From Comamonas serinivorans (GTDB taxonomy: Bacteria > Pseudomonadota > Gammaproteobacteria > Burkholderiales > Burkholderiaceae_C): a stretch of DNA of 64,000 nt. Below, in pieces: positions 7,902-46,023 of this stretch (within the stretch, counting starts at the first letter, position 1; each line of letters starts with the position of its first letter). The stretch lies in contig NZ_CP021455.1 of the NCBI RefSeq assembly GCF_002158865.1, forward strand, positions 1,096,835 to 1,160,834. The letters are read 5' to 3'. The notes beneath the pieces are model-generated. The model made no database searches. It was not told where the DNA came from and was given only the letters and a program-made list of their open reading frames with translations. The position numbers and the translations under genes were made by a program.

Positions 7902-8633
7902 ATGAGCACCACGCAGGACCTGGTCACCGCACTCAAACACGAACTGAAGGCCGCGCAGATGACCTATGCGGACCTGGCCAAGGAGCTCGGCATGGCCGAG
8001 TCCAGCGTCAAACGCATGCTGGCCAAAGGCGACATGCCGCTGACCCGCATCGACGCCATCTGCCGTGCGCTCAAGCTCGACTTTGCCGACCTGGCGCGCC
8101 GCGTGGCCGACGCCCAGCCCCTGCTCAGCCAGCTCACGCAGGCCCAGGAGGTGGCCGTGGTGGCGGACAAAAAGCTGCTGCTGTGCGCCATCTGCGTGCT
8201 GAGCCACTGGACGCTGGAGCAGATCTGCGAGGCCTACCGCATCGACGAGCCCGAGTGCATCCGCCACCTGGTGATGCTCGACCGCATCGGCATCATCGAG
8301 CTGCGGCCGCTGAACCGCTACCGCCTGAAGCTGGCCAAGACCTTCCGCTGGCGGCCCAACGGCCCGGTGATGGATTTCTTCCGCGAGAACGTGCTGCTGG
8401 ATTACTACGGCGGCAGCTTCGACCGCGACGACGAGGTGCTGCAGCTGGTGCACGGCACCATCGGCCACAGCATGGGGCCGGTGTTCGTCGAACGCATCCA
8501 GCGCATTGCGCAGGACTTTGCCAAGCAGCACCTGGCCGATCAGAAGCTGCCTGACGACATGCGCGAGGGCTACACCCTGCTGCTGTCCATGCGGCGCTGG
8601 GAATTCGCGGCCTTCACCGCCTTGCGGCGCTGA
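7902..8633 (+). CDS. XRE-family HTH transcriptional regulator with C-terminal domain
   Basis: N-terminal HTH (TYADLAKELGMAESSVKRMLAKG); RBS GGAGGGAGG upstream. Confidence 0.75.
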   Translation: MSTTQDLVTALKHELKAAQMTYADLAKELGMAESSVKRMLAKGDMPLTRIDAICRALKLDFADLARRVADAQPLLSQLTQAQEVAVVADKKLLLCAICVLSHWTLEQICEAYRIDEPECIRHLVMLDRIGIIELRPLNRYRLKLAKTFRWRPNGPVMDFFRENVLLDYYGGSFDRDDEVLQLVHGTIGHSMGPVFVERIQRIAQDFAKQHLADQKLPDDMREGYTLLLSMRRWEFAAFTALRR

Positions 8634-9263: not shown

Positions 9264-9992
9264 ATGAACCCACAGAAAGCTGTGCTCGTCATCGGTGCGG
9301 GCGATGCCACGGGAGGCGCGATTGCCCGCCGCTTTGCGCGCGAGGGCTACATCGCCTGCGTCACGCGCCGCAGCGCCGACAAGCTGCAGCCCCTGGTCGA
9401 GCAGATTCGCGCCGACGGCGGCCAGGCGCATGGCTTTGGCAGCGATGCCCGCCAGGAAGAGGCCATGGCCTCGTTGGTGGCGCACATCGAGCGTGACATC
9501 GCCCCCATCGAGGTGGCGGTGTTCAACATCGGCGCCAACGTGCGCTTTCCCATCACCGAGACCACCGCGCGCGTCTACTTCAAGGTGTGGGAGATGGCCT
9601 GTTTCGCCGGCTTTCTGATGGGACGCGAGGCGGCCAAGGTGATGGTGCCGCGGGGCCGCGGCACCATTCTGTTCACCGGGGCCACGGCCAGCCTGCGGGG
9701 GCGCGACGGGTTCGCGGCCTTTGCCGGCGCCAAGCACGGCTTGCGGGCGCTGGCACAGAGCATGGCGCGCGAGCTGTGGCCGAAGGGCATCCACGTCGCC
9801 CACCCCATCATCGACGGCGCCATCGACACCGACTTCATCCAGAGCAATTTCCCCGAACGCTATGCGACCAAGGCGCAGGACGGCATCGTCAACCCCGAGC
9901 GCATCGCCGAGCTGTACTGGCAGATCCACCAGCAGCCGCGCGACGCCTGGACGCACGAAACCGAGCTGCGGCCCTGGATGGAGCCGTGGTGA
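9264..9992 (+). CDS. SDR-family NAD(P)-dependent oxidoreductase
   Basis: VLVIGAGDATGGAIARRFAREG Rossmann motif; catalytic region. Confidence 0.85.
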   Translation: MNPQKAVLVIGAGDATGGAIARRFAREGYIACVTRRSADKLQPLVEQIRADGGQAHGFGSDARQEEAMASLVAHIERDIAPIEVAVFNIGANVRFPITETTARVYFKVWEMACFAGFLMGREAAKVMVPRGRGTILFTGATASLRGRDGFAAFAGAKHGLRALAQSMARELWPKGIHVAHPIIDGAIDTDFIQSNFPERYATKAQDGIVNPERIAELYWQIHQQPRDAWTHETELRPWMEPW

Positions 9993-33276: not shown

Positions 33277-33306
33277 GACCCTTGATTCATCCGGCGCGTT
33301 CTTGAT
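33277..33306. promoter_or_regulatory. direct repeats CTTGATTCA x2 just upstream of rtcR ATG (candidate RtcR/UAS site)
   Basis: CTTGATTCA at 33277-85 and 33298-306; related CTTGATTTG at ~33193; TGAATC motif also upstream of the second sigma54 promoter. Confidence 0.3.
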
Positions 33307-33312
33307 TCAGCC

Positions 33313-34965
33313 ATGAAACCCATTCACGTCATCACCTTCCTGGGCACCCAGCTGGACAGCGGCAACGGTGCCGGCCGCTGGGAGAAGTGGCGGCCCACCG
33401 TGGCGCTGACCCAGCACGAGGACATGGAGGTCGCGCGGCTGGACCTGCTGCTGACCGGGCCCAGCCACCGGGCGCTGGCCGAGCGCGTGCGCGCCGACAT
33501 CGGCACGGTGTCGCCCGCCACCGAGGTCGTGCTGCACGAGTTGGCCGTGGACGATCCCTGGGACTTCGACGTCGTCTACACGCAGCTGTTCGATTGGGCC
33601 CGCGCGCAGGCCTTCGATACCGAGGCCGCGCAGTACTGGGCGCACATCACCACCGGCACGCATGTGGCGCAGATCTGCCTGTTCCTGCTGACCGAGTCGC
33701 GCGTGCTGCCCGGGGTGCTGTGCCAGACCTCGCCGCCCAAGCGGCAGCGCGAGGGCGCGGCCGGTGCCTACACGCTGATCGACCTCGACCTCTCGCGCTA
33801 CGACGCCATCGCCCAGCGCCATGCGGCCGACCAGCGCGATGCAGTGGCCTTCCTGAAAAGCGGCATCGCCACGCGCAATGCGCGCTTCAACGCGCTCATC
33901 GACGAGGTCGAGCGCGTGGCCGTGCGCTCCACCGCGCCGGTGCTGTTCGTGGGGCCCACGGGCGCGGGCAAGTCCTTCCTGGCCCGGCGCATGCACGAGC
34001 TGAAGAAATCGCGCCACCAGATCAACGGCGCCTTCGTCGAAGTCAACTGCGCCACGCTGCGTGGCGACGGCGCGGCCTCGACGCTGTTCGGCCACAAGCG
34101 CGGTGCTTTCACCGGCGCCGCCACCGACCGGCCCGGCCTGCTGCGCGCCGCCGATGGTGGGCTGCTGTTCCTCGACGAAATCGGCGAGCTGGGGGCCGAC
34201 GAGCAGGCCATGCTGCTCATGGCCATCGAAGACAAGCGCTTCTACCCCCTGGGTTCGGACCGCGAGGTGACCAGCGACTTTCAGCTGGTGGCGGGCACCA
34301 ACCGCGACCTGCGCGCCGAGGTCGCCGCGGGGCGGTTTCGCGAAGACCTGTTCTCGCGCATCAACCTGTGGACCTACGAGCTGCCTGGCCTGGCGGGCCG
34401 GCCTGAGGACATCGAACCCAACGTCGACTACCTGCTCACCCGCCATGCGCAAGCCTCGCGCCGCGCGGCCCGCTTCAACGTCGAAGCGCGCCGCGCCTAC
34501 CTGCGCTTTGCGCAAAGCGGCGAAGCGCTGTGGCGCGGCAATTTCCGCGACCTGTATGCCAGCGTGACGCGCCTGGCGACCCTGGCCGAGGGCGGGCGCA
34601 TCACCGAGCCGCTGGTGGTGGCTGAGATCAAACGGCTGCGCTGGATGTGGACGCGCGACAGCGCGGTGGCGGCGCCCGGCGCGCGCGCCTCGGGGGGCTC
34701 GCCGGGGGCGATGGCGGTCGATGCGGCGAGCGTGGACCTGGCCGACTTCTACGACGAAGCGGCCCTGGAGCAGATCGACCTGTTCGACCGCGTGCAGCTG
34801 CAGGGCGTCATCGCGGTGTGCCAGCGCTCGCGCACGCTGTCGGACGCGGGGCGCCAGCTGTACCAGGCCTCGCGGGCGCAACGCGCGGCGTTGAACGATT
34901 CGGACCGCCTGCGCAAGTACCTGGCCAAGTTCAACCTGAGCTGGGACCGCGTCAGCACACGATGA
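33313..34965 (+). CDS. rtcR: RtcR, sigma54-dependent transcriptional activator with N-terminal CARF domain
   Basis: MKPIHVITFLGTQLD..RWEKWRPTV (CARF); AAA+ core VLFVGPTGAGKS..GAFTGA..GLLFLDEIGEL. Confidence 0.85.
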   Translation: MKPIHVITFLGTQLDSGNGAGRWEKWRPTVALTQHEDMEVARLDLLLTGPSHRALAERVRADIGTVSPATEVVLHELAVDDPWDFDVVYTQLFDWARAQAFDTEAAQYWAHITTGTHVAQICLFLLTESRVLPGVLCQTSPPKRQREGAAGAYTLIDLDLSRYDAIAQRHAADQRDAVAFLKSGIATRNARFNALIDEVERVAVRSTAPVLFVGPTGAGKSFLARRMHELKKSRHQINGAFVEVNCATLRGDGAASTLFGHKRGAFTGAATDRPGLLRAADGGLLFLDEIGELGADEQAMLLMAIEDKRFYPLGSDREVTSDFQLVAGTNRDLRAEVAAGRFREDLFSRINLWTYELPGLAGRPEDIEPNVDYLLTRHAQASRRAARFNVEARRAYLRFAQSGEALWRGNFRDLYASVTRLATLAEGGRITEPLVVAEIKRLRWMWTRDSAVAAPGARASGGSPGAMAVDAASVDLADFYDEAALEQIDLFDRVQLQGVIAVCQRSRTLSDAGRQLYQASRAQRAALNDSDRLRKYLAKFNLSWDRVSTR

Positions 34966-34966
34966 T

Positions 34967-35019
34967 GGGGTATGGTGTGAATGCCGTTTTCCATGAAACG
35001 GAAATGGCCTGATACTGCC
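34967..35019. repeat. R1 repeat unit immediately after rtcR stop
   Basis: GGGGTATGGTGTGAA TGCCGTTTTccatgAAACGGaAATGG CCTGATACTGCC. Confidence 0.7.
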
Positions 35020-35133
35020 AAGGCTAAGCATTCCACAATGGGATGATCAACAGCGCGCCCGCCGGCTTGCACGGTGGGGCGCATGCAGCGGCTGGCCCAA
35101 GGCCGGGTGCACGACATGGAGAGGGAGACGCAC

Positions 35134-35802
35134 ATGGCGCAGTACATCGAGGTCATTGGACAGGCCAGCGTGAGCGAAGTGGCCGTGGAGCAGCGCGTGG
35201 CGCTGACGGTGTCGCACCGCGGCAAGGGCGGTGGCATGTCGGACAAGGTGGTGGCGCACAAGGCCACGCAGCAGCGTGAGCGGGTGATCGCCACGCTGCT
35301 GGCCCACGGCATGCGGGAGCACGAATTGCATGAGGGCGGCATGGACAGCGGCACCTGGCACTTCAAGCGCAAGCGCGAGGTGCACCACAGCCACCGCATC
35401 CTGCTGATCTGCGAGGACGACGCGCGCCTGTTTGCGGCCCTCGAGGCCCTGGCGCCGCTGCAGGACGAGGGCGAGCTTGACTTGCAACTGGACATGCTGG
35501 ACGCCCGCTACGAGGTGCCGGCCGGTGCGCTGAGCGGGGCGCAGCAGGCGGCGGTGGCGCATGCCCGTGAGCATGCGAATGGCCTGGCGCAGGCTGCCGG
35601 CGTGGCGCTGGGCGCGGTGGTGCAGGTGCAAGAGCTGGCGCCGGCGCGGGAGCGTTCGGGTGCCTATGGCGAGTCCTGGTATGGCTTGGCCGCCGCAGGC
35701 GGCGCGGCTGCGGCACCGGCCATGACCCTCTTGGCGAGTAACCAGCGCACGCGCACCTTGAGCTACCGCGTGCGCTTTGCGCTGCAGCGGGCTGTGCCCT
35801 GA
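35134..35802 (+). CDS. SIMPL/DUF541-like protein without signal peptide
   Basis: YIEVIGQASVSEVAVEQRVALTV ... ARYEVPAGALSGAQQAAVAHAREHANGLAQAAGVALGAVVQVQE; RBS GGAGAGGGAG. Confidence 0.5.
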   Translation: MAQYIEVIGQASVSEVAVEQRVALTVSHRGKGGGMSDKVVAHKATQQRERVIATLLAHGMREHELHEGGMDSGTWHFKRKREVHHSHRILLICEDDARLFAALEALAPLQDEGELDLQLDMLDARYEVPAGALSGAQQAAVAHAREHANGLAQAAGVALGAVVQVQELAPARERSGAYGESWYGLAAAGGAAAAPAMTLLASNQRTRTLSYRVRFALQRAVP

Positions 35803-35882
35803 CGCGCGTCGTTCGCCGCAACGCCTGGGCCGCGGTGGCCTGAATGTCGGTCCGACCGTGCACTGGGCAGGACGTGGGGCCA

Positions 35883-35915
35883 GTGAATCGCCTGCAACGC
35901 CCCTGCAGACGATTC
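35883..35915. promoter_or_regulatory. inverted repeat TGAATCG-N19-CGATTCA, candidate enhancer (UAS) ~125 bp upstream of the sigma54 promoter
   Basis: 7-bp perfect arms; shares the TGAATC core with the CTTGATTCA repeats upstream of rtcR. Confidence 0.3.
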
Positions 35916-36024
35916 ATGGGCGGGCGTAGAGTTCGCATCGAAAGCGATACAGTGGGATCGTGTTCGGCGGTCATGGTGGCGTGCAGCCCTGCTGTCGCCC
36001 TGGGGTGAAGCGGGATGGGCCGAA

Positions 36025-36041
36025 CTGGCACGGCCGTTGCG
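36025..36041 (+). promoter_or_regulatory. sigma54 (RpoN) promoter, near-consensus
   Basis: CTGGCACGGCCGTTGCG = YTGGCACGr-N3-TTGC with exact -24/-12 spacing; ~15 nt upstream of the tRNA-like element. Confidence 0.6.
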
Positions 36042-36055
36042 AAGGATGAGGTGAA

Positions 36056-36149
36056 CGTGGGCCCAGGTCTGGGGTGGCGCAAAGCGAGCGCGTCGGACTT
36101 GAATCCGAAGGGTGCTGGTGCAAGTCCAGCCCCCAGACCTGGGCCCGCG
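36056..36149 (+). ncRNA. tRNA-like cloverleaf closed by 16-19 bp perfect helix (Y-RNA/YrlA-like candidate ncRNA)
   Basis: GGGCCCAGGTCTGGGG(36059-74)/CCCCAGACCTGGGCCC(36131-46); inner arms GCGC-AAAGCGA-GCGC, CGGA-CTTGAAT-TCCG, GCTGG-TGCAAGT-CCAGC with 2-nt and 5-6-nt linkers as in tRNA. Confidence 0.5.
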
Positions 36150-36422
36150 AAACCCGGGGGCGCGACGGCGCGAGGCAGGCCTTGACGCGGCGGCCGTGTC
36201 GGCAAGGGTGCAGCGAGAAGCGGCTACCAGGCCGGTTGCCACGCATCGCAGCCCGTCGGCCAGCCCGACCGGCAGGGGATGAGGTCAGGTGTGCAACGGT
36301 CTGGCGCAGTTCAAGGAGAACGCCCGACCATGCATCGGGAAGGTGCTGGACAAGCCAGCCGCCAGACCGTTGCGCATGGGCCAGTCCCCGTCCCGATCCA
36401 CACGAACACAGGGAGAGCGGCC

Positions 36423-39320
36423 ATGGGCCAGCACGACGAAGAGCACTCACCGGACGCCGGTGAGCACCCGGTGCCGCCGGCGCATGCGGCATCCGGGCTT
36501 GCCCAGGCGAACCCGGGCTGGGCAGCCGGCCAGCTTGCACGCGCCCGTGCGGCTTTGGCACAGGCACAGGTACAGCGGGACCCGTCAGGGCCCGACGCGG
36601 CCGGCGCTGCGTCATCCGCGGATACCGACGCTGCAGGCCACGCCGTGGCGCGTGCGCTGGCCAAGGTGAATGCCTGGCGCCAGGCCTTGGCCGGCATGGC
36701 CAGTGGCGAGCTGCAGGTGGGGTCGCGCACGCCGCTGCGCAACGTGGCGGCCTGGCTCACGCCGAATGTGTTGCACGGCGGATTCGCCTCGGGCCAGCTG
36801 ATGGCCGGGGGGCGCGCGCAAGCACACGAGACGCACTGGCTGGCGCAACTGGCGGCCGGTCAGCCGCTGGGCAGCACGCCGACCGACTGTGCCCGGATGG
36901 CCACGCTGGCGGCACAGCCCGTGGACCGCAGCACGCTGCCCCAGAAGCTGGACCGCACGCCGCTGAACGACTGGTTCCTGACCGAGGCGGGCCTGCAGCA
37001 GCTGATGCAGTGGCTGGACGACGGCCGCTGGCGCATCGCCGTGCCCGAGGAGGGCGCCTTGCTGGTGGTGGCCTGGCTGCTGAGGCAGGGGCATGACACC
37101 TCGGCGGCCCGCCTGTTGGACACCCTGTCGCCCTACTGGCACCGCGTTCGCTTTTACCCGCAGCCCGCTGCGACGCCCATGCCGGCGCTCGACCGCGTGA
37201 GCCTGCGCAGCGCGCAGGACGTGATGGCGCAGTTGAACCAGCTGCAGACGCCGCCCGCGGTGCTGGCCCAGCACCAAGCCATCCACGTGTGGCGCCCCTT
37301 GCTCGACGAGCTGGTGCTGCTGTGGCTGCAGGCCGTGCCCGGCGCGCTGCACGGCCCTGACGCTGCCGCGGCCCATGGCGAATCCGGGCGAGGTGCCGAC
37401 GGCGCCGTGACGGATGCGCTGCCGCGCCTGCGTGCCGGCACGCGCGAGGCCGAAGGCGGCTTGCCCCTGGCCGAGCCCGACGCCGACTGGCGGCAGCAGG
37501 CGGCGGCCTGGCGCCTGCGGGCGCGCGAGGCCGAGGCGCAGCACACGCGCAGCCGGGCGCACCGCAAGCCCGGCTCGCACGTGGCGCAGTTGTGGGCCAT
37601 GCTGGACCAGGTGCTGCAAGGTCAGGCCCTGAGCGAGGCACAGCGCCGCCGGCTGCGCTTTGTGCTGGCGTGCCAGGTCAGCGCCCATGGCGTGCCAGGC
37701 GATGCGAGGCACCACACCTGGCGCGCCGCGCAACGGGCGCAGACCGACACCGTGTGGCGCGCCCACTGGGCGTACGCACTGGCCGCGCGCGTGCAGGCGC
37801 AGGGCCCCTACGCGCTGGGCGATGGCCTGCCGGATCTGGACACCGCGCTGCAAGCTGCCACGGCGCAAGAGGCACAACAACATGCGCACCTGCCCGAAGG
37901 CACCGTGGTCTGGCCCAGCCTGCGCCGCAAGCTGCGCCGCGCCCACTTGGCCACCGTGCCGCAGCTGGTGCAAGCCGGCATCGTGCCGTCGAGCGAGGTG
38001 CTGGCCAGCGTGCTGCCCGGCACCACGGGCGCACAGCTGGCGCGCACCATGCCCGATGCGGCCAGCGCGCGGCTGCTGGGCGCGCTGTGGCGTGCGTTTC
38101 GCGGGCGACGCTCGGTGCTGCTGCTGAACCACGAGTCGCAGGTGCGCTTTCACGAGCTGCCCTGGGTGCTGCGCTTGCAGCAGCACGCCTGCGTGCCGGC
38201 GACGGCCGCCGGGACCGAGGGCGATTCGGCACATCGCTGGGACATGGCCGGCCTGGCGCGCAGCCAGGCGTTGGCGCAGCTGGATGCGGCCGCGCGCCTG
38301 GCGCTGACGCAATTCCCGCAATCGGCCTTCCCGAACCCGCTGCTGTGGGAGCTTCGCGCGCTGGCCGAGCAGGGTGGCTGGCAGCCGCCGTGGGTCGAAG
38401 ACATCGCGGCCGACATCTTCATGGGCAGCTTTGGGCCCAAGTTCGGGCAGGCCGTGCACGACGCGCTGCCCTGGTTGCAGGGCAGCCTGTATGCGCAGCA
38501 TTTCCAGCTCGACCTGGAGGCGCTGCGCCTGGCCATGGCGCCGGCCGTGGCCTGCCACGCGGCCTTTCAGCGTTACGCCGAAACGCCAGCGGGCTCACCC
38601 GGCAACCCCGCGGCCAAGCGCGAACAACAGGCCTTGCTGCAGCGCTATCACGCGGCGCCCGACCTGCTGGTGGCGCACCTGCGTGCGCGCACGGGCTGGT
38701 CGGCCGACGCCCGCGGCGTGGGCGCGAATGGCGCCGTCATCGAGCAGATGGGCCTGGTCAGCACGGCCAACTTCGCGCCGCTGGCGCAGCGCTTTGGCTG
38801 GGGCGTGGCCGGTGCCGGTTTGCGCGATGCCACGGCCCAGGCGCGCGAGCTCCAGGGGTGGGCGCAGGCCGCACGCACGGGCTTCGAGCGGCTGTGCGCG
38901 GGGCTGGACCTGGGCGTGCGCGAAGCCGGCGCCATGCTGGACAAGCCGCCAACCCAGATCCAGGCGACAAACCCGGCGGATGCCCATGCGGCAGCGACAG
39001 AAGCCCAGGCCGCCGACCGCCTGCTGGCCGAGCGCGTGCGCCGGGCCGCCACCAGCTGGCGCCAGGTCGTGCTGCTGCTGAGCCTGCTGCCCGCCGAGCA
39101 GCAGCGCGCCAACCTGCTGGGCATGCAGCGCCACCTCGCGGCCTGTGACACCCCCGCCAGCCGGGGCGTGACGCGCGCCCTGGCGCCCCAGCTGGCCGAC
39201 CTGATGGCCTGTGTGCAAGGCCAGGCGCGCGACGCCGGTCGGCCACCGTTCCACGGCTGGACCCAGCCAGGGCAGCGGGGCGTGCTGTTCACCCTGCGCC
39301 AGGGCCTGAAGGCCGGGTGA
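36423..39320 (+). CDS. large hypothetical protein (~965 aa), Ala/Leu-rich, no recognised domain; sits where RtcB is normally found
   Basis: 3-kb ORF on the operon strand with high GC3; SD GGGAGAG 5 nt before ATG 36423 (alternative ATGs at 36330 and 36279 have low-GC3 codons). Confidence 0.55.
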   Translation: MGQHDEEHSPDAGEHPVPPAHAASGLAQANPGWAAGQLARARAALAQAQVQRDPSGPDAAGAASSADTDAAGHAVARALAKVNAWRQALAGMASGELQVGSRTPLRNVAAWLTPNVLHGGFASGQLMAGGRAQAHETHWLAQLAAGQPLGSTPTDCARMATLAAQPVDRSTLPQKLDRTPLNDWFLTEAGLQQLMQWLDDGRWRIAVPEEGALLVVAWLLRQGHDTSAARLLDTLSPYWHRVRFYPQPAATPMPALDRVSLRSAQDVMAQLNQLQTPPAVLAQHQAIHVWRPLLDELVLLWLQAVPGALHGPDAAAAHGESGRGADGAVTDALPRLRAGTREAEGGLPLAEPDADWRQQAAAWRLRAREAEAQHTRSRAHRKPGSHVAQLWAMLDQVLQGQALSEAQRRRLRFVLACQVSAHGVPGDARHHTWRAAQRAQTDTVWRAHWAYALAARVQAQGPYALGDGLPDLDTALQAATAQEAQQHAHLPEGTVVWPSLRRKLRRAHLATVPQLVQAGIVPSSEVLASVLPGTTGAQLARTMPDAASARLLGALWRAFRGRRSVLLLNHESQVRFHELPWVLRLQQHACVPATAAGTEGDSAHRWDMAGLARSQALAQLDAAARLALTQFPQSAFPNPLLWELRALAEQGGWQPPWVEDIAADIFMGSFGPKFGQAVHDALPWLQGSLYAQHFQLDLEALRLAMAPAVACHAAFQRYAETPAGSPGNPAAKREQQALLQRYHAAPDLLVAHLRARTGWSADARGVGANGAVIEQMGLVSTANFAPLAQRFGWGVAGAGLRDATAQARELQGWAQAARTGFERLCAGLDLGVREAGAMLDKPPTQIQATNPADAHAAATEAQAADRLLAERVRRAATSWRQVVLLLSLLPAEQQRANLLGMQRHLAACDTPASRGVTRALAPQLADLMACVQGQARDAGRPPFHGWTQPGQRGVLFTLRQGLKAG

Positions 39321-39710
39321 GCAGGTCGGGTGAGGTCAGGTGAAGCCAGCGGGGCCATGGGGCCCCATCTTCCAGGTTGGCCCGAATGGTGACCGTGGGT
39401 CTGGGTGCCGGTGCTGCCGCCCCAGGCGTTCGCTGTGGGCGCCTGGCGGACTGGCGCCGAGGAACGGAGGAGCTTGCGCGACAATCCGGCATCCGGTCCG
39501 GGCGAGGCTCGCTAGGACATGGCCATGGCGCGCGGCGGTCAGCACGCGGCGGTGTCGGCCCCGCAGCCGCGCGATCCCGGTGGTCGGGTGCAAGTGCCCT
39601 GTCGGCTTGCGTTCCACGCCAACAGGCCTGCTGCCGTGCCTCGTGCCATGTCAACCGTTGCTTGACGGTCGGCGGGCCCCGTGCCCACGCCGTGTTGTTC
39701 AGAAGTACCC

Positions 39711-40454
39711 ATGCCTTTACGCATCGACGAAGCCATCACCCAGCTGGATCACGGCTGGCTCAGCCATTTGAAATCGCAGGGTTACGGCGGCGATGCCTTG
39801 CGCCAGGCGATCGACCTGGTGCTGTACGCCCAACAGCAGGCGGCGGCGCGCAACAGCGCCGAGTTCAAGGCCGCCATCGCGCGCGTCAACCACCTGGTGG
39901 GGGCGGGCATCGCGTGTGACAACAACGGCGACTACCTGTACACGGCCGAGTGGCGCGACCCGGCTTGCGCCGGGCTGGGCTTCGCCATCGAATACGCGGC
40001 CGACCCGGCCAGCTGGCGGGCCGAGTTCCGCATGCCCGGCTGCTGGCCGCACACCGTGGACAACCTCGACATCACCGACACCCGCGCTGTGGACCACGAC
40101 TTTGCGCTCTGGCTGGCGCGCGCCAGTGCCCGCCATTTCACGCACCTGATCGAACGCCAGCTGCCCGAAGGCGAAGCACTGCGCGCGCCCTGTACGGCGG
40201 CCGTGCGGGCCGGCACCTGGGCCGAATTCGTGTGCCTGCACCCACTGCAACCCGTGGCCCGCCTGGGGCACGAGCGGCTGGAGCAGGCCGCCTGGTCGGC
40301 CCAATACCCCAGTGCCGCCCAGCGCGAGTTGCAGGCCCGCTTCGATGTGCAGAGCGCCTTGCTGCTGCGCTTGATCGTGGTTCAGCAGGCAGCATGGGCT
40401 TGGCATGAAGAGTATGGCGACAATCGCGATGACGATTCAACGGGAAGGCATTGA
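39711..40454 (+). CDS. hypothetical protein (~247 aa); last ~16 codons and the stop are encoded by an R1 repeat
   Basis: ORF with typical codon usage until ~40405, then runs into repeat GAAGAGTATGGCGAC... Confidence 0.45.
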   Translation: MPLRIDEAITQLDHGWLSHLKSQGYGGDALRQAIDLVLYAQQQAAARNSAEFKAAIARVNHLVGAGIACDNNGDYLYTAEWRDPACAGLGFAIEYAADPASWRAEFRMPGCWPHTVDNLDITDTRAVDHDFALWLARASARHFTHLIERQLPEGEALRAPCTAAVRAGTWAEFVCLHPLQPVARLGHERLEQAAWSAQYPSAAQRELQARFDVQSALLLRLIVVQQAAWAWHEEYGDNRDDDSTGRH

Positions 40455-40460
40455 TACTCC
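40407..40460. repeat. R1 repeat unit (variant inner)
   Basis: GAAGAGTATGGCGACA ATCGCGATGACGATTCAACGGGAAGGCATT GATACTCC. Confidence 0.55.
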
Positions 40461-40987
40461 ATTTGATGTGGCGCTTGCTGAGGGCTGCTTGCCCGACACC
40501 GGAAGGCTGGCGTCGACGCAGGGACATGACGCGTGGCCAGCGGTGCATGGGCTCGCCAGCCGCCCGCACAGCGCCCCCAACCCGCTGACTGGGCGTCCTG
40601 ATGCAGCAGGCCTGGCTCGACCTGCCCGTGCTCTTTCGCCTGCATGCGCAGGCGCGTGGCCAACAGGTGGCGCAGCCCGAGCGGGCCGATGGGGTGTTCG
40701 CCATCCAGGGCACGGCCAGCGCGCAGCCTCACACCGTCCGAGACGGACCGCATCCGGGCCGATTGCCTGTGAAGGCGGGCTTGCAAGGGGCGCTGCATGG
40801 ATCGCTGGCGCGCTGGATGAATCAAGCCAGTTTGGCTTGCGGTGGCTGAGCCGTGGCGAGGCGCAGGCGCCCTCGACGCCAAGTGCTTGATCCGGCAAGG
40901 GTTTGCGCGGCTCGCCTGTTGATTTGGCGGGGCCTGGCACGCCGCGTGCAACGAGGATGGCCACACACAACTCAACTGGGAGCACAC

Positions 40988-42193
40988 ATGCCAACCGACG
41001 ACCAGGTGGAGGCGAAGCCGCGTCACCGTGACCCAGCTCGCACGGCCACCGCCGCAGACACCAAAAGCGTGACCGGCGCAGCGCAGACGGGCCGTGGCGC
41101 AGCCATCGAGATCGATGGCTCGCAGGGCGAGGGCGGCGGGCAGATCCTGCGCACGGCGCTGGCCTTGTCCATGATCACCGGCCAGCCGCTGCACCTGCGC
41201 GCCATCCGCGCCAAGCGGCCCAAGCCCGGGCTCATGCGCCAGCACCTGATGTGCGTGCAGGCGGCCGCGCAGGTCAGCGGGGCCCACATCAGCGGGGCCG
41301 AGCTGGGGGCCACCGAGTTGCGCTTCGCGCCGGGCCCGGTGCGGGCGAGCGCCTACGAATTTGCCATGGCCAGCGCAGGCAGCTGCATGCTGGTGCTGCA
41401 GACCGTGCTGCCGGCGTTGATGCTGGCCGATGCCCCCAGCACGCTGGTGCTGCGGGGCGGCACGCACAACCCCATGGCGCCCAGCTTCCACTTTGTGCGC
41501 GATGCCTTTGCGCCGCTGGTGCAGCGCCTGGGCGCCGGCCTGACGCTGCAGCTGCAGCGGCTGGGCTTTTACCCCGCAGGCGGTGGCGAGGTCACGGCCA
41601 CCATCACGCCTGCGGCCCGCCTGACCCCGTTCGACCTGACCGAGCGTGGCGAGCTGCAGCAGGGCGATGCTCTGTGCCTGACGCCGGGGCTGTCGGGGTC
41701 GATCGCGCGCCGCGAGCTGACGGCGCTGGGCCAGGCCATGGGCTGGGGCGAGGACCGCTTGCGCTTTGGCGAGGCCAGGCAGCACGAGGGGCCGGGCAAT
41801 GCCTTGATCGCCCGCCTGCGCTACGCCCACGTGACCGAGGTGTTCGTCGAGCTTGGGGCCCGCAACCTGTCGTCGGAGCAGGTGGCCGGCAAGCTGGTGC
41901 AGGCCATCCGGGCGTTTCAACGCCGGCCAGGTGCCGCGGTGGGCCCACACTTGGCCGACCAGCTGGTGCTGCTGCAGGCCCTGGCCGTGTGGCAGGCCGG
42001 ACGGACCGGCAGCCAGGCGGATGCGCCCCACGCCGATGTGCCCCAGGCGGATGTGCCGCAAGCACGCTTCTCGTGCAGCGAGGTGACCGAGCACTTGCGC
42101 ACCAACTGCGTGGTGATCGAACGCTTTCTGCCCGTGCGCTGCACGCTGACCCAGGGCCCTGTGTCCCGGGTGACGGTGCGCTGGGCGGGGTGA
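40988..42193 (+). CDS. rtcA: RNA 3'-terminal phosphate cyclase
   Basis: IEIDGSQGEGGGQILRTALALSMITGQPLHLRAIRAKRPKPGL matches RtcA N-terminal signature; ~40-aa N-extension if ATG 40988 (SD GGGAG) is used. Confidence 0.85.
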   Translation: MPTDDQVEAKPRHRDPARTATAADTKSVTGAAQTGRGAAIEIDGSQGEGGGQILRTALALSMITGQPLHLRAIRAKRPKPGLMRQHLMCVQAAAQVSGAHISGAELGATELRFAPGPVRASAYEFAMASAGSCMLVLQTVLPALMLADAPSTLVLRGGTHNPMAPSFHFVRDAFAPLVQRLGAGLTLQLQRLGFYPAGGGEVTATITPAARLTPFDLTERGELQQGDALCLTPGLSGSIARRELTALGQAMGWGEDRLRFGEARQHEGPGNALIARLRYAHVTEVFVELGARNLSSEQVAGKLVQAIRAFQRRPGAAVGPHLADQLVLLQALAVWQAGRTGSQADAPHADVPQADVPQARFSCSEVTEHLRTNCVVIERFLPVRCTLTQGPVSRVTVRWAG

Positions 42194-42365
42194 GTCCCGC
42201 GCGCCAGTCGGGGCACTGAGGCGGGCTGGCGGGGCCCCTGGCCTCGCCGGCCGGGCCCATGCCATCCCGCGCAAGGCCCGCCGGCGCCGAGGTGCCCGGC
42301 GCCGCGCAACGGACGATGCGCGGAGCTAGGGCCGGGGTGAGCGGGATGGGCGACAATCGCGCGCC

Positions 42366-43250
42366 ATGACTGCAGCCAACCCCTCTGCGGATTCGACCGT
42401 GAATTCCAACGCCTACATCCTGACCCTGTCTTGCCCCGACCGCACGGGCATCGTCCATGCCGTTTCGGGCTTTCTGCTGGAGCAGGGCGGCAACATCGAA
42501 GAAGCCGCGCAATTCAACGACCCGGGCACCGGCCTGTTCTTCATGCGCGTGCGTTTTGCCAGTGCCAGCGCGGACTACGAGGCCCTGCGCGCCAAGCTGA
42601 CCGACTTCGCCAAGCCGCTGGACATGAAGCTGCGCCTGTATTCGACCAGCGAGCCCATGCGCACGGTGATCTTCGTCAGCAAGGAAGGCCACTGCCTCAA
42701 CGACCTGCTGTTCCGCTGGAAGTCGGGCCTGCTGCCCATCGACATCCGCGCCATCGTCAGCAACCACCGCGACTTCTACCAGCTGGCCGCGAGCTACAAC
42801 ATCCCGTTCCACCACCTGCCCATGACCCGGGACAACAAGGCCGAGGTCGAGGCCAAGCAGTTCGAGATCATCAAGCAGGAAAGCGCCGACCTGGTGGTGC
42901 TGGCGCGCTACATGCAGATCCTGTCGGATGACCTGTGCCGCAAGCTGGCGGGGCGGGCCATCAACATCCACCACAGCTTCCTGCCCAGCTTCAAGGGCGC
43001 ACGCCCCTACTACCAGGCGCACGAGCGCGGGGTGAAGCTCATCGGCGCCACGGCGCACTACGTGACGGCCGACCTCGACGAGGGGCCCATCATCGAGCAG
43101 GACGTGGCGCGCGTGGACCACTCGCGCACCGTGGAAGACCTGACCGCCATCGGCCGCGACACCGAGAGCCAGGTGCTGGCCCGCGCCGTGAAGTGGCACA
43201 GCGAGCACCGCGTGCTGCTCAATGGCCACAAGACCGTGGTGTTCCGCTGA
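42366..43250 (+). CDS. purU: formyltetrahydrofolate deformylase
   Basis: N-terminal ACT domain + formyltransferase core (ARYMQILS..INIHHSFLPSFKGA). Confidence 0.9.
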   Translation: MTAANPSADSTVNSNAYILTLSCPDRTGIVHAVSGFLLEQGGNIEEAAQFNDPGTGLFFMRVRFASASADYEALRAKLTDFAKPLDMKLRLYSTSEPMRTVIFVSKEGHCLNDLLFRWKSGLLPIDIRAIVSNHRDFYQLAASYNIPFHHLPMTRDNKAEVEAKQFEIIKQESADLVVLARYMQILSDDLCRKLAGRAINIHHSFLPSFKGARPYYQAHERGVKLIGATAHYVTADLDEGPIIEQDVARVDHSRTVEDLTAIGRDTESQVLARAVKWHSEHRVLLNGHKTVVFR

Positions 43251-43388
43251 GCGCCTGAACGGGCGTCGTTCGCGGGTTTTGGGGAGTGCGCCGGCACGCC
43301 GGATGCCGGGTGCTCAACGGGGCCTGCATCGCACGCCGCAGCGCCAGCGGTGCGTGTCGTGTCTGGACGAGGTTGATGGGTGTGTGAC

Positions 43389-43440
43389 GGGGTATTGGGT
43401 CAGCCCCGTTCATATATCAACGGCGAGTAAGCCATACCCC
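43389..43440. repeat. R1 repeat unit
   Basis: GGGGTATTGGGTCAG CCCCGTTcatatatcAACGGcgagtaa GCCATACCCC. Confidence 0.65.
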
Positions 43441-43599
43441 TGATTGATTCGGGTGTGGCATTCACGCCATCCAGCGCCGAGGATGAGGCGCTCAAGAGGA
43501 GCACCACCACTGACGCCTGGCCACCCGCGCATCCCGCATGGCGGCGCGTGCAATCGGCCACGCGGCCACGCCGTCGACCTGCCGCGTTGGGCACGCGAC

Positions 43600-44067
43600 T
43601 CAGCGTGCGCTGGATTCGCCGGCCGCGGGCTGCACCGGCCTGGGGCTTGCGCTGTTGGCCGCCGGCACCACGGCAGGCTGCGCGGGCTTGCGTGCGGGTG
43701 CTGGGGCCGTCGCAGCGCGGGCGGCGGGGCGCGTGCCGCCAACCGGCAACTCGGCATACGGGCGCGACAAGCCGTTGGCCAGGCAGTTGCGCATGGCCTC
43801 GCGGCGCAGCTGCGTCGTGTGCTTGGTCGACTCCCCCTGCACGGCGTTCGAGCTGCGGCGGCAATCGCGCTCGATCGCGGCTTCGGCCTTGGCGCGTCGT
43901 TGCAGGCAGGCCTTGAACTCGCTGGGGCGCTGTTCGGCTGGCAGGGCTTGCAACTCGTGTTGGCACATCTGCATGCGCGTGGGCACGTGCCCGGCGGCGA
44001 CGCCGTCGGCCTGGGCGGCGGACCAGGGCAGCGTCAGGACCAACAGAAGCGGGGTGAGGGGTTTCAT
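43600..44067 (-). CDS. PsiF-like secreted protein
   Basis: Signal peptide MKPLTPLLLVLTLPWSAAQA; RMQMCQHE..EFKACLQRR resembles PsiF repeat. Confidence 0.55.
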   Translation of the reverse strand: MKPLTPLLLVLTLPWSAAQADGVAAGHVPTRMQMCQHELQALPAEQRPSEFKACLQRRAKAEAAIERDCRRSSNAVQGESTKHTTQLRREAMRNCLANGLSRPYAELPVGGTRPAARAATAPAPARKPAQPAVVPAANSASPRPVQPAAGESSAR

Positions 44068-44729
44068 GGTGACCGCATTGTCTCCGAGTCCCTGGCCGGC
44101 CCGCGTGACGATGCTGGCCGGTGTGGCGTGATGGAAACGGTGCAGGCGGCGCCCGCGCGTGGCCTGTAGATCCAGTGCGAATGCGCGTCGCGGGTCGCTG
44201 CGTGCGCCTCATGCCGACACGCGCGGCCACACAGGCTGTGTGGCTTGTCCTGCGGCTTCAGAGCGCTCAGGTGCATGCGCCGACGCTGATCGCCGGCTTC
44301 CACCGCCTGCGGCTTGGCCCATGCCCCTTAGACCGCGTGGCGCCGATGTGGCCAGCCGTGGGCATTCGACTGGGCAGCCGTTGGCGAGCGGTGCTTGGCG
44401 CGCCGGATGCGATCGTGTGGCTGAGCAGGACCAGTTCGGCAAAGGCGAGTGGCTTGGCACGCCGGTTTGGCATGCTGATTTGCAAAACAGTTGTGAGCAC
44501 GCGCCTGGGGCCTGGCCCTGGGGCAAGATCGGGCGTTTGGCGCGCATGGCCGCGGCGCGTGGGCCCGTGCGGTCATCGCAATGGCTTCGCGGCCGGCTGG
44601 TGTGCCAGCGCGGCGTGGTTCGCTGGGACCGGCGAGGCTGGCGCGGGCAGGCTGCCTGCGACGCCTTGCACTACGTGCGACTTGCGCATGCGGCCGCAGG
44701 CGCGGGTGAATGGGACGAAGGATGTGGGC

Positions 44730-45134
44730 ATGCAGGCCTTGATGGGGTTGATGTGGTTGCTGGTGTTTCAGGCGGGGGGCGAGTTGCTGGCCCAGAGCCT
44801 GGGACTGGCCTTGCCGGGGGCGGTGCTGGGCATGGCCCTGCTGGTGGTGGCCTTGCGCTGGCGCGCGGTGCGCGAGCCGGTGGCGGCCTGTGCCGACTTC
44901 CTGCTCACGCACCTGTCGCTGCTGTTCGTACCGGCCGGCGTGGGGGTCCTGGCCCACATGGGGCTGGTGACGCAGCATGGCCTGGTGCTGCTGGTCATCC
45001 TGCTGGTGTCCACCGCCATCGGGCTGGTGGTGACTGCCGTGCTGCTGAACTGGCTCACGCGCCATGAAGCCGCTCCATCGGCCGTCCCGCCTGGCGCGGC
45101 GTCGCTCCCTTCGTCGACGGAGCAGGGCGGATGA
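44730..45134 (+). CDS. CidA/LrgA-family holin-like membrane protein
   Basis: ~134 aa, 4 TM; start at ATG 44730 within longer ORF. Confidence 0.7.
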   Translation: MQALMGLMWLLVFQAGGELLAQSLGLALPGAVLGMALLVVALRWRAVREPVAACADFLLTHLSLLFVPAGVGVLAHMGLVTQHGLVLLVILLVSTAIGLVVTAVLLNWLTRHEAAPSAVPPGAASLPSSTEQGG

Positions 45135-45880
45135 CGGCGCTCTCTGCCTGGGCCGGCCAGGCCGCAGCGCTGTGGCACAGCTGGGCGGCCACGCCGCTGT
45201 TCGGGCTCACGCTCACGCTCATGGTGTACCTGGCGGTGCAAACCGTGTACCGGCGCCTGGGCAACCTGACCTGGGCCAACCCCGTGTTCTGGTCGGTGCT
45301 GGTGGTGGCCGTGGTGCTCAGCGTCACCGGCGTGCCCTATGCGCGCTATTTCGCCAGCGCGCAGTTCATCCACCTGTTGCTGGGCCCGGCCGTGGTGGCC
45401 ATGGCCTGGCCGCTGTGGCAGCGCCGCGCGGCCTTGCGCCAGCGCGGCGTCAAGCTGTTGGCCGTGGCGATGGTGGGCGGCGCATGCGCCGCCGGCTCGG
45501 CCGTGCTCATGGCCTGGTGGTGGGGGCTGCCGCGCGAGGTGATCCTCTCGCTGGCGCCCAAGTCGGTCACCACGCCGGTGGCCATGGGCGTGGCCGACGC
45601 GATCGGTGGCATCCCGGCCCTGTCGGCGGTGTTCGCGGTGCTGACCGGCATGATCGGCGCCATTGGCGGCAAGACCGTGTTTGCCCTGCTGCGCCTGCCG
45701 GCCACCAGCCGCGGCGACATGGTGCGCGGCTTTGCCATGGGCACGGCGGCGCATGGCATCGGCTCGGCGCGCGCGCTGCAGGTCAACGCCGAGGCGGGCG
45801 CCTACGCCGGCCTGGCCATGGGGCTGCAATCGCTGCTGGCGGCCCTGCTGATTCCGCTGCTGGTGCAACTGTGGCCGTGA
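45131..45880 (+). CDS. LrgB/CidB-family membrane protein
   Basis: Overlapping start (ATGA) with upstream cidA-like gene; multi-TM. Confidence 0.8.
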   Translation: MTALSAWAGQAAALWHSWAATPLFGLTLTLMVYLAVQTVYRRLGNLTWANPVFWSVLVVAVVLSVTGVPYARYFASAQFIHLLLGPAVVAMAWPLWQRRAALRQRGVKLLAVAMVGGACAAGSAVLMAWWWGLPREVILSLAPKSVTTPVAMGVADAIGGIPALSAVFAVLTGMIGAIGGKTVFALLRLPATSRGDMVRGFAMGTAAHGIGSARALQVNAEAGAYAGLAMGLQSLLAALLIPLLVQLWP

Positions 45881-46023
45881 AGGCGGGTGGTCGGGCGGCC
45901 AGGCGAGCGCGTTCACCGTGGCCGACGTGGCGCGCGGCCATGGCGTCTGCCCCACGCCACTGAACACCACGCCCGCAACCGGGGTGGTGCTTTGATGGCC
46001 CAGGGCGGCGCTGCGCGCAGCAT

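Follow-up and report, generated by a model that had tools for sequence, protein, structure and literature searches.

The Ro60 protein (Rsr) and the Y RNAs YrlA and YrlB are encoded together in RtcR-controlled rsr-yrlBA-rtcBA operons (PMC4201824), and the regulator RtcR is described as responding to damaged tRNA ends (PMC7790460; PMC10159003). In the present work we analyze CCO03_04750, a 965-residue protein gene of Comamonas serinivorans located between two tRNA-like RNA elements and the rtcA gene, in a stretch of 64,000 nucleotides (contig NZ_CP021455.1, positions 1,096,835 to 1,160,834 of the forward strand, hereafter the window). The gene belongs to an uncharacterized family. The linkage of this family to genes for tRNA-like RNAs is ancient and nearly universal among its members, and the RNA folds into a genuine cloverleaf whose anticodon appears unconstrained. 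We infer, with a probability of about one half, that the protein binds its own co-transcribed tRNA-like RNA, would depend on RtcR in the window and acts in response to tRNA or RNA damage.

The closest analogue of this RNA–protein module is Ro60 with the Y RNA YrlA. In both cases a gene for a helical protein adjoins small RNAs whose tRNA-like domains are closed by a long stem, under the control of RtcR and sigma-54 (predicted for the module) and together with RtcA or RtcB. The earlier note on this DNA, made by a reader who saw only its letters and open reading frames, had proposed an RNA-binding scaffold or Ro60 analogue. A comparable RNA-binding partner is indeed what genomic context and the basic isoelectric point would favor; likeness to Ro60 or TROVE proteins in sequence or fold did not emerge, since the 965-residue protein has neither a TROVE nor a vWA_Ro60 match and no fold similarity; in Ro60 a HEAT-repeat ring (TROVE) is followed by a vWA domain. 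Genuine Ro60 was detected by Pfam at three of the loci compared, which carry L numbers throughout (L002, L030 and L091). On the RNA side, the window elements differ from YrlA in matching the tRNA model and in forming a complete cloverleaf that includes the anticodon arm; a search with the YrlA model (RF02553), which covers a Ro60-binding stem and a partial tRNA-like domain, gave no match at E ≤ 0.1 in positions 30000-46000 of the window, while the same search recovered YrlA at 71.8 bits in L091 and at 52.5 bits in L030. Finally, the module coexists with both Ro60 and YrlA in L030, and most of its members lie outside Rtc operons.

Other described systems are more distant. Like tmRNA and SmpB, the module combines a dedicated tRNA-like RNA with a protein partner and would be tied to problems of the translation apparatus; however, the tmRNA and SmpB genes are as a rule neither adjacent nor co-transcribed, SmpB is a small beta-barrel whereas the family protein is predicted to be all-alpha, and tmRNA possesses an mRNA-like domain and lacks an anticodon arm. 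No similarity to this pair emerged, and the Rfam tmRNA families had no match in the window region. The tRNA-ProX genes found with ProRSx in Streptomyces and Kitasatospora (PMC10404621) are also non-canonical actinobacterial tRNA genes with a shared body (C1:G72) and differing anticodons that adjoin a dedicated protein gene. They decode on the ribosome, and the protein encoded beside them is an isoform of class II prolyl-tRNA synthetase, whereas the module pairs an unrelated all-alpha protein with RNAs whose actinobacterial T and D loops are non-canonical and whose anticodon is essentially unconstrained. Type III toxin–antitoxin systems (ToxIN-like) share the placement of an RNA gene, at times repeated in tandem, directly upstream of a protein gene within a single transcript. 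There a small endoribonuclease toxin processes RNAs made of short pseudoknot repeats; the RNA of the module is a cloverleaf, and the protein, of about 800 residues (750-965), has no nuclease family match. Alpha-solenoid tRNA binders of the exportin-t type are likewise large all-helical proteins of similar size, and karyopherin-family proteins (importin-beta, Kap95, exportin-1) were among the weak Foldseek matches of the predicted structure, at non-significant values (E ≥ 0.4, template-modeling (TM) score of about 0.1).

The family is large. An exhaustive profile search with a hidden Markov model (HMM) returned 1,855 cluster representatives (50% identity) at E ≤ 0.001, with 1,017 same-family representatives at E ≤ 1e-30; among the best 150 of the 1,855, nearly all have 720-840 residues and match from end to end. 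A word-indexed search with the 965-residue protein gave 39 homologues, and a scan of one genome per species found the family in at least 508 genomes, numbers well in excess of chance. Its hosts include many Streptomyces, where it is especially common, other Actinobacteria, Planctomycetota, Verrucomicrobiota, Acidobacteriota, Chloroflexota, Cyanobacteria, Myxococcus and several Proteobacteria.

Linkage to the RNA was surveyed in 80 species genomes. ARAGORN called same-strand tRNA-like genes directly upstream of the protein gene in 61 of them, against about eight unrelated tRNAs in roughly 1.6 Mb of flanking DNA. With R1, a covariance model derived from the family tRNA-like RNAs, the count rose to 71, with one to four tRNA-like genes per locus; R1 scored the linked elements at 64-92 bits versus 33-57 bits for ordinary flanking tRNAs. 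Statistically, the association is overwhelming. A tRNA-like gene was also present in almost all of the other homologous loci compared, which cover several phyla. Orientation and spacing relative to the open reading frame (ORF) are fixed. The rest of the neighborhood is not: genomic context differs between genera, and all-against-all clustering of neighboring ORFs revealed no family-wide protein partner, only synteny among close relatives. Since there is neither a constant protein neighbor nor any attachment-site repeat or integrase, the constant unit consists of the RNA and the protein.

The tRNA-like RNAs fold as one family. In the family cloverleaf 99.8% of cells are paired, as opposed to 33-43% in shifted-register controls, and 17 of the 21 pairs show double-sided, compensatory changes. 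The members share features absent from housekeeping tRNAs, namely a 5'-terminal C1 or U1 and a conserved AGGGCGC variable-loop region; the actinobacterial form has a GGCGGAA T loop, no canonical TPsiC and a D loop devoid of GG. At L039 (9641-9973), L044, L050, L056, L065, L067, L068, L069, L076, L081 and L085 the genes stand in tandem, two to four to an array and each with a different anticodon, and the number of copies varies between orthologous, syntenic loci of related Streptomyces. In a set of 47 distinct actinobacterial sequences, almost the whole of the entropy falls at positions 34-37; eighteen different 7-nt anticodon loops and one of 6 nt were counted, and they differ even between syntenic orthologues. 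Once fourfold sites in the linked ORF have reached saturation (identity 0.55), identity is still 92% in the RNA body but only 36% in the anticodon; within Actinobacteria the body remains 92-98% identical at this level of saturation (~0.55), anticodon stem included. At a fourfold identity of 0.68-0.72, anticodon identity is already 0.37-0.54. On these alignments the anticodon evolves at or above the synonymous rate, which would fit an absence of constraint and diversifying selection alike.

Measured against a canonical tRNA (RF00005), the first window element has the cloverleaf, at 52.8 bits versus a gathering score of 29. It lacks a 7-nt loop with a decoding anticodon, its loop having 6 nt and the anticodon across the family changing at or above the fourfold-site rate, and both window elements are closed by helices in place of a free 7-bp acceptor end with CCA. 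Many non-actinobacterial copies also have 6-nt anticodon loops, and positions 37-38, judged by eye, are often unlike those of real tRNA loops (for example U37 after UCC). The frequency of the cognate codon in the linked ORF does not differ according to the anticodon (Wilcoxon p = 0.38), which rules out a dedicated decoder for that ORF. A decoding role in general is, from these sequence features, unlikely.

The 965-residue ORF itself is an intact, real gene. It runs uninterrupted on the + strand to its stop at 39320, and GC content at codon positions 1/2/3 in the frame of 36423 is ~0.78/0.52/0.90 over 36600-39300, the standard coding signature in high-GC genomes. In the opposing 648-residue ORF (36612-38558) the 0.90 class would fall at codon position 1; the + strand is therefore favored and the antisense frame is a shadow ORF, as the earlier note had held when it dismissed it as noise. 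The 100%-identical database protein is Comamonas serinivorans CCO03_04750. Three lines of evidence place the start at 36423: the three closest homologues begin with MNQHD or MSQHD, aligning with MGQHD at this position in a family alignment (A1); the ribosome-binding site (RBS) and ATG are conserved in L001-L003; and an alternative reading of 1013 residues from 36279 would cross the second tRNA-like element (36300-36368). The GenBank model of 891 residues, which starts about 74 codons downstream of this conserved ATG, thus begins too late. Homologues at 63%, 62% and 55% identity span 97-99% of the query, so there is neither a frameshift nor a gene fusion. The three ways in which the earlier note thought its gene might fail, as a frame lacking relatives, as noncoding DNA or as two genes split by a frameshift, can therefore be set aside.

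Helical and alanine-rich composition, as well as the lack of a recognizable motif, had also been read correctly from the letters. Alanine makes up 19% of the residues, and a confident AlphaFold2 model from a 24-sequence alignment is entirely helical (mean predicted local distance difference test (pLDDT) 82.7, predicted TM score (pTM) 0.79). The protein has no Pfam, NCBIfam or PADLOC match, no Pfam match was found at E ≤ 1 across 24 family members, and a sequence-profile search of the PDB gave no relative. Comparison of a predicted structure, which the earlier note had suggested as a check, brought no fold relative either: Foldseek returned generic helical noise against the PDB (best E 0.41) and BFVD (best E 0.023). 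As no relative of known structure is detectable, the fold and any activity would be new. Membership in the unnamed family is clear from full-length homology and from the conserved motifs GSRTP...W.T.EV..GGFATG, PEEGALL, FRRRRSLLLL, AADIFMG, NGxxxEQ and AYAWRQ, all of them carried by the window protein. In alignment A1, whose 24 sequences come from several phyla, 62 columns are invariant, among them six arginines (R412, R434, R456, R562, R563 and R880) and the acidic or polar residues E136, E209, D295, D664, N769 and E774. The family proteins are basic, with a median isoelectric point of 9.2.

The features of the window operon are collected in Table 1. The candidate sigma-54 site is the sole exact match to TGGCAC-N5-TTGC in the 64 kb, and its TGGCACGGC...TGCG block is kept in L001-L003. 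The two RNA elements lie between this site and the RBS, about 55 and 285 nt upstream of RBS/ATG, and both are closed by helices of 17-19 bp. Element 1 has its acceptor stem lengthened into a ~19-bp helix, hence there is no free CCA end; the extension shows compensatory changes in L001 and L002, the minimum free energy (MFE) is -65.7 kcal/mol (z = -7.5), and the 6-nt 'anticodon' loop leads ARAGORN to report a 'tRNA-???' with a 2-nt anticodon. Element 2, found by R1 only and missed by Rfam and ARAGORN, has shortened D and T loops, an MFE structure that is a clean cloverleaf (z = -5.0) and counterparts in L001 and L002; it falls within the 5' extension of the longest ORF.

Table 1. Positions, on the numbering of the window, of the protein gene, its RNA elements and the other operon features
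Feature	Position	Strand	Description
965-residue protein gene CCO03_04750	36423..39320	+	uncharacterized family tied to tRNA-like RNA genes; all-alpha model
RBS GGGAGAG	36411..36417	+	5 nt ahead of the ATG at 36423; kept with the ATG in L001-L003
tRNA-like element 1	36056..36149 (core 36068-36139)	+	Rfam tRNA 52.8 bits; R1 71.4 bits
tRNA-like element 2	36289..36377 (core 36300-36368)	+	R1 50.8 bits, E = 1.9e-10; 18-bp closing helix
sigma-54 (-24/-12) consensus TGGCACGGCCGTTGC	36026..36040	+	predicted promoter, 16 nt ahead of the first long helix
rtcR	33313..34965	+	Pfam RtcR 6.3e-76, Sigma54_activat 5.5e-49; 71% identical to Variovorax rtcR
247-residue protein gene CCO03_04755	39711..40454	+	start set by conserved CCCATGCC
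Gene remnant	40589..40769	+	C-terminal ~60 codons of a ~690-730-residue gene; tblastn with L001/L002 proteins
rtcA, RNA 3'-phosphate cyclase	40988..42193	+	Pfam RTC 4.6e-74; 64% identical to Variovorax RtcA

The rtcR product is a sigma-54 activator with an RtcR/CARF-type N-terminal domain and presumably regulates the operon. The gene rtcA closes it, with a probable start at the ATG of position 40988, preceded by GGGAG. CCO03_04755 is 80% identical to its L001 counterpart, has only nine homologues in 5.8 billion proteins and gave no Pfam or NCBIfam match; it is an accessory gene confined to the narrow clade of the window. Further downstream, the ~690-730-residue proteins of L001 and L002 match the window by tblastn only over residues ~672-732: their gene, intact in these two loci, is mostly deleted here. 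The corresponding family is labeled 'TerD family protein' in GenBank, has no Pfam match and more than 1,100 homologues, and looks like another uncharacterized Rtc accessory gene. The window contains no RtcB, Ro60 or YrlA, and RtcB queries gave no tblastn match along its whole length. A SIMPL/DUF541 gene (35074-35802) separates rtcR from the sigma-54 site; L002 lacks it, and an unrelated insertion is probable. Upstream of rtcR, the opposite strand carries an SPFH/Band 7 protein gene (31421-32581).

The link of the module to Rtc and other RNA-repair operons recurs at four separate places in the protein tree. Within the window clade, the module accompanies RtcR and RtcA, and L002 additionally has Ro60 nearby. 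L030, a metagenome-assembled genome of Pirellulaceae, presents a divergent rtcR followed by Ro60, YrlA, RtcB, two tRNA-likes and the family protein. Here YrlA (7946-8087; its Rfam score of 52.5 bits is below the gathering score) and the two tRNA-likes (9777-9947) belong to the same Ro60–RtcB operon, therefore they are distinct RNA classes able to coexist. L018 (Chloracidobacterium) has a divergent rtcR, then DUF6847, two ORFs that have no family match, RtcB, RtcA, one tRNA-like and the family protein; in its relative L072, a homologue of the ~690-residue partner adjoins the family gene. The RtcB gene of L018 (6717-8669) contains an intein, visible as an Intein_splicing domain inside the RtcB match. 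In Massilia (L004 and L086), a paralogue of elongation factor G (680 residues) and two small EFG_IV proteins precede the tRNA-like(s) and the family protein, and the module faces genes for an RNA ligase (PF09414) and for a kinase protein of the HD-plus-AAA_33 type (L004 4223-12502), possibly forming a tRNA or ribosome repair cluster devoid of Rtc. The ~690-residue partner family also has a member of 691 residues in the classical Variovorax operon L091, which reads rtcR, Ro60, YrlA, RtcB, zf_Tbcl, a metallo-beta-lactamase-fold protein, RlaP, the 691-residue protein and RtcA.

These arrangements bear on the claim that the protein stands in the position of RtcB. As a replacement this does not hold, since the module follows an intact RtcB in both L018 and L030; found alongside RtcB, Ro60 and YrlA, it is an add-on and not a substitute for RtcB or Ro60. 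A cryptic RtcB was likewise rejected, given the absence of a match to the RtcB domain (PF01139), which bears a His/Cys metal site and a GMP-accepting His, the all-alpha model and the coexistence with RtcB elsewhere. The suggestion that placement between a non-coding RNA and rtcA reflects a role in the same pathway is supported by the two tRNA-likes behind a sigma-54 site downstream of rtcR and by the pairing that marks the whole family; most family members, however, lie outside Rtc operons.

We propose that damaged tRNA ends would switch on RtcR, which in turn would drive the predicted sigma-54 promoter. The resulting transcript would open with two tRNA-like domains locked in long helices, then encode the 965-residue protein, the clade-specific 247-residue protein and RtcA. 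The basic helical protein would recognize the body of the RNA, that is, its acceptor, D and T arms, variable loop and anticodon stem, leaving the anticodon loop free, and the complex may have damaged tRNA or translation RNA as its target or work side by side with it, in a manner comparable to Ro60 with its Y RNA. An RNA–protein complex is suggested because the linkage is exclusive and ancient and because the RNA is conserved beyond the needs of end-processing: trimming by RNase P or RNase Z should not require conservation of the anticodon stem. It is further suggested by the basic protein, by the recurrent placement among genes for damaged tRNA and by obligatory co-expression, which is built in both in the window, where the RNAs lie between the predicted promoter and the RBS, and in Streptomyces, where the ATG follows the RNA by 0-3 nt.

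Several observations weigh against this proposal. The majority of members are not near RNA-repair genes and all Streptomyces copies lie outside Rtc operons; an Rtc-related role may thus be limited to some clades. In the window, the third operon gene is deleted and the system may be partly degenerate. About 11% of the sampled members have no adjacent tRNA-like gene, therefore the protein can exist without a cis-encoded RNA. The eleven RNA-less loci comprise nine of the 80 surveyed together with L006 and L009; those on the protein tree (L006, L009, L013, L016, L035, L040, L041, L042, L049 and L054) fall in one part of it, L077 being absent from the tree. From this distribution the absence is consistent with a single loss. 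No other conserved upstream RNA or element was found in this clade, where the RNA may have been lost or be encoded elsewhere in the genome. A nearly synonymous rate of anticodon change fits a plain lack of constraint and, taken alone, gives no pointer to function, the predicted model shows no RNA-binding fold recognizable by Foldseek, and the invariant residues E136, E209, D295, D664, N769 and E774 could equally mark an enzyme active site instead of a scaffold.

The alternative that survives best treats the tRNA-like element as a cis-acting processing or stability signal, at which a cut by RNase P or RNase Z would give the mRNA a mature and in many cases leaderless 5' end, the function of the protein being unrelated. 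The Streptomyces loci (L012-L090) argue for it: their ATG lies 0-3 nt past the called 3' end of the RNA (GGC-tt-ATG; for instance L015 9890-9968), leaving no space for a Shine-Dalgarno sequence, so that tRNA-style 3' processing would give a near-leaderless mRNA. Many copies outside Actinobacteria encode CCA or CC after a 7-bp acceptor stem, like tRNA precursors, and one whole clade manages without the element. A processing signal nevertheless leaves unexplained the exclusive pairing with one protein family over many phyla, the near-frozen anticodon stem and variable loop, and the tandem arrays; in the window clade, moreover, the acceptor stems are buried in their long helices well upstream of a normal RBS and ATG. 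We consider it unlikely. A 5' 'CAT' flank that might pair with the start codon in Streptomyces, judged by eye, was present in only about half of the loci and was dropped as a candidate.

A second alternative is a conflict system: as bait or antitoxin, the tRNA-like RNA would offer an anticodon loop that mimics the targets of anticodon nucleases or of other toxins directed at tRNA, and the protein would be a sensor or effector reacting once this bait is cut or modified. The only fast-evolving part of the RNA is indeed the anticodon with the two next bases, which differ between syntenic Streptomyces loci; copy number and genomic context vary, and the module adjoins either RtcR, RtcB and RtcA, whose inducer is cleaved tRNA, or an RNA ligase with an HD-kinase. 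Against this, the protein shows no PADLOC match and no recognizable toxin or nuclease domain, the neighbor-ORF comparison revealed no defence-island or mobile-element neighbors, the anticodon rate is not clearly above neutral expectation, and positions 37-38, by eye, often depart from those of real tRNA loops. This explanation, too, seems improbable to us. A related and equally speculative elaboration sees the module as a sentinel ribonucleoprotein: the protein would hold a decoy tRNA, whose exposed and fast-changing anticodon loop would lure phage or competitor nucleases that attack anticodon loops, or toxins of the same origin that modify tRNA, and the damage would be sensed or repaired via the protein, feeding RtcR, RtcB and RtcA in Rtc operons. 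Were it true, the module would represent a novel kind of RNA-based sensor for damage or infection, spread across many bacterial phyla.

Still less probable is an enzyme that uses the charged tRNA-like RNA as substrate or cofactor, in the way of aminoacyl-tRNA-dependent transferases, the anticodon setting the amino acid. The invariant acidic, polar and arginine residues could form an active site, the full cloverleaf has a 7-bp acceptor stem followed by CCA in many copies outside Actinobacteria, and the actinobacterial tRNA-likes, among which CGG is the commonest anticodon, carry C1:G72, described in the tRNA-ProX work as the proline identity element (PMC10404621). The window-clade RNAs have no free acceptor end, however, many copies carry 6-nt anticodon loops, the actinobacterial copies lack canonical D-loop GG and T-loop TPsiC, the anticodon is unrelated to codon use in the linked ORF, and Pfam and fold searches found no similarity to any known aminoacyl-tRNA-dependent fold or family. 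That the gene is the cargo of an island integrating beside ordinary tRNA genes is effectively refuted: tRNA genes are common integration sites and contexts do differ between genera, but the RNAs form a single family with shared odd features and outscore the ordinary tRNAs of the flanks by a wide margin, their orientation and spacing do not vary, there is no integrase or other conserved neighbor gene, and no downstream repeat of the tRNA 3' end exists within 10 kb in 61 loci, except for tandem copies.

We therefore return to the reading of a protein that binds its own tRNA-like RNA. Full-text literature searches found no description of the module, although the RNA-repair survey of Burroughs and Aravind (2016) may contain an earlier mention; as far as this evidence goes, both the protein family and its coupling to a tRNA mimic are new. 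ARAGORN labels the tRNA-like genes as ordinary tRNAs (tRNA-Pro, tRNA-Gly, tRNA-Trp), and genome annotators probably mislabel them likewise, which would distort tRNA gene counts and estimates of codon capacity in Actinobacteria. The near-leaderless junction in Streptomyces would offer a bacterial case in which tRNA punctuation defines where an mRNA has its 5' end. Recurrence in Rtc operons adds a new component to the open question of the repair targets and wiring of RtcB and RtcA. If the pairing is functional, the RNA would represent a novel type of tRNA mimic, and together with its protein would form a widespread, apparently undescribed RNA–protein module present in the genomes of at least 508 species.

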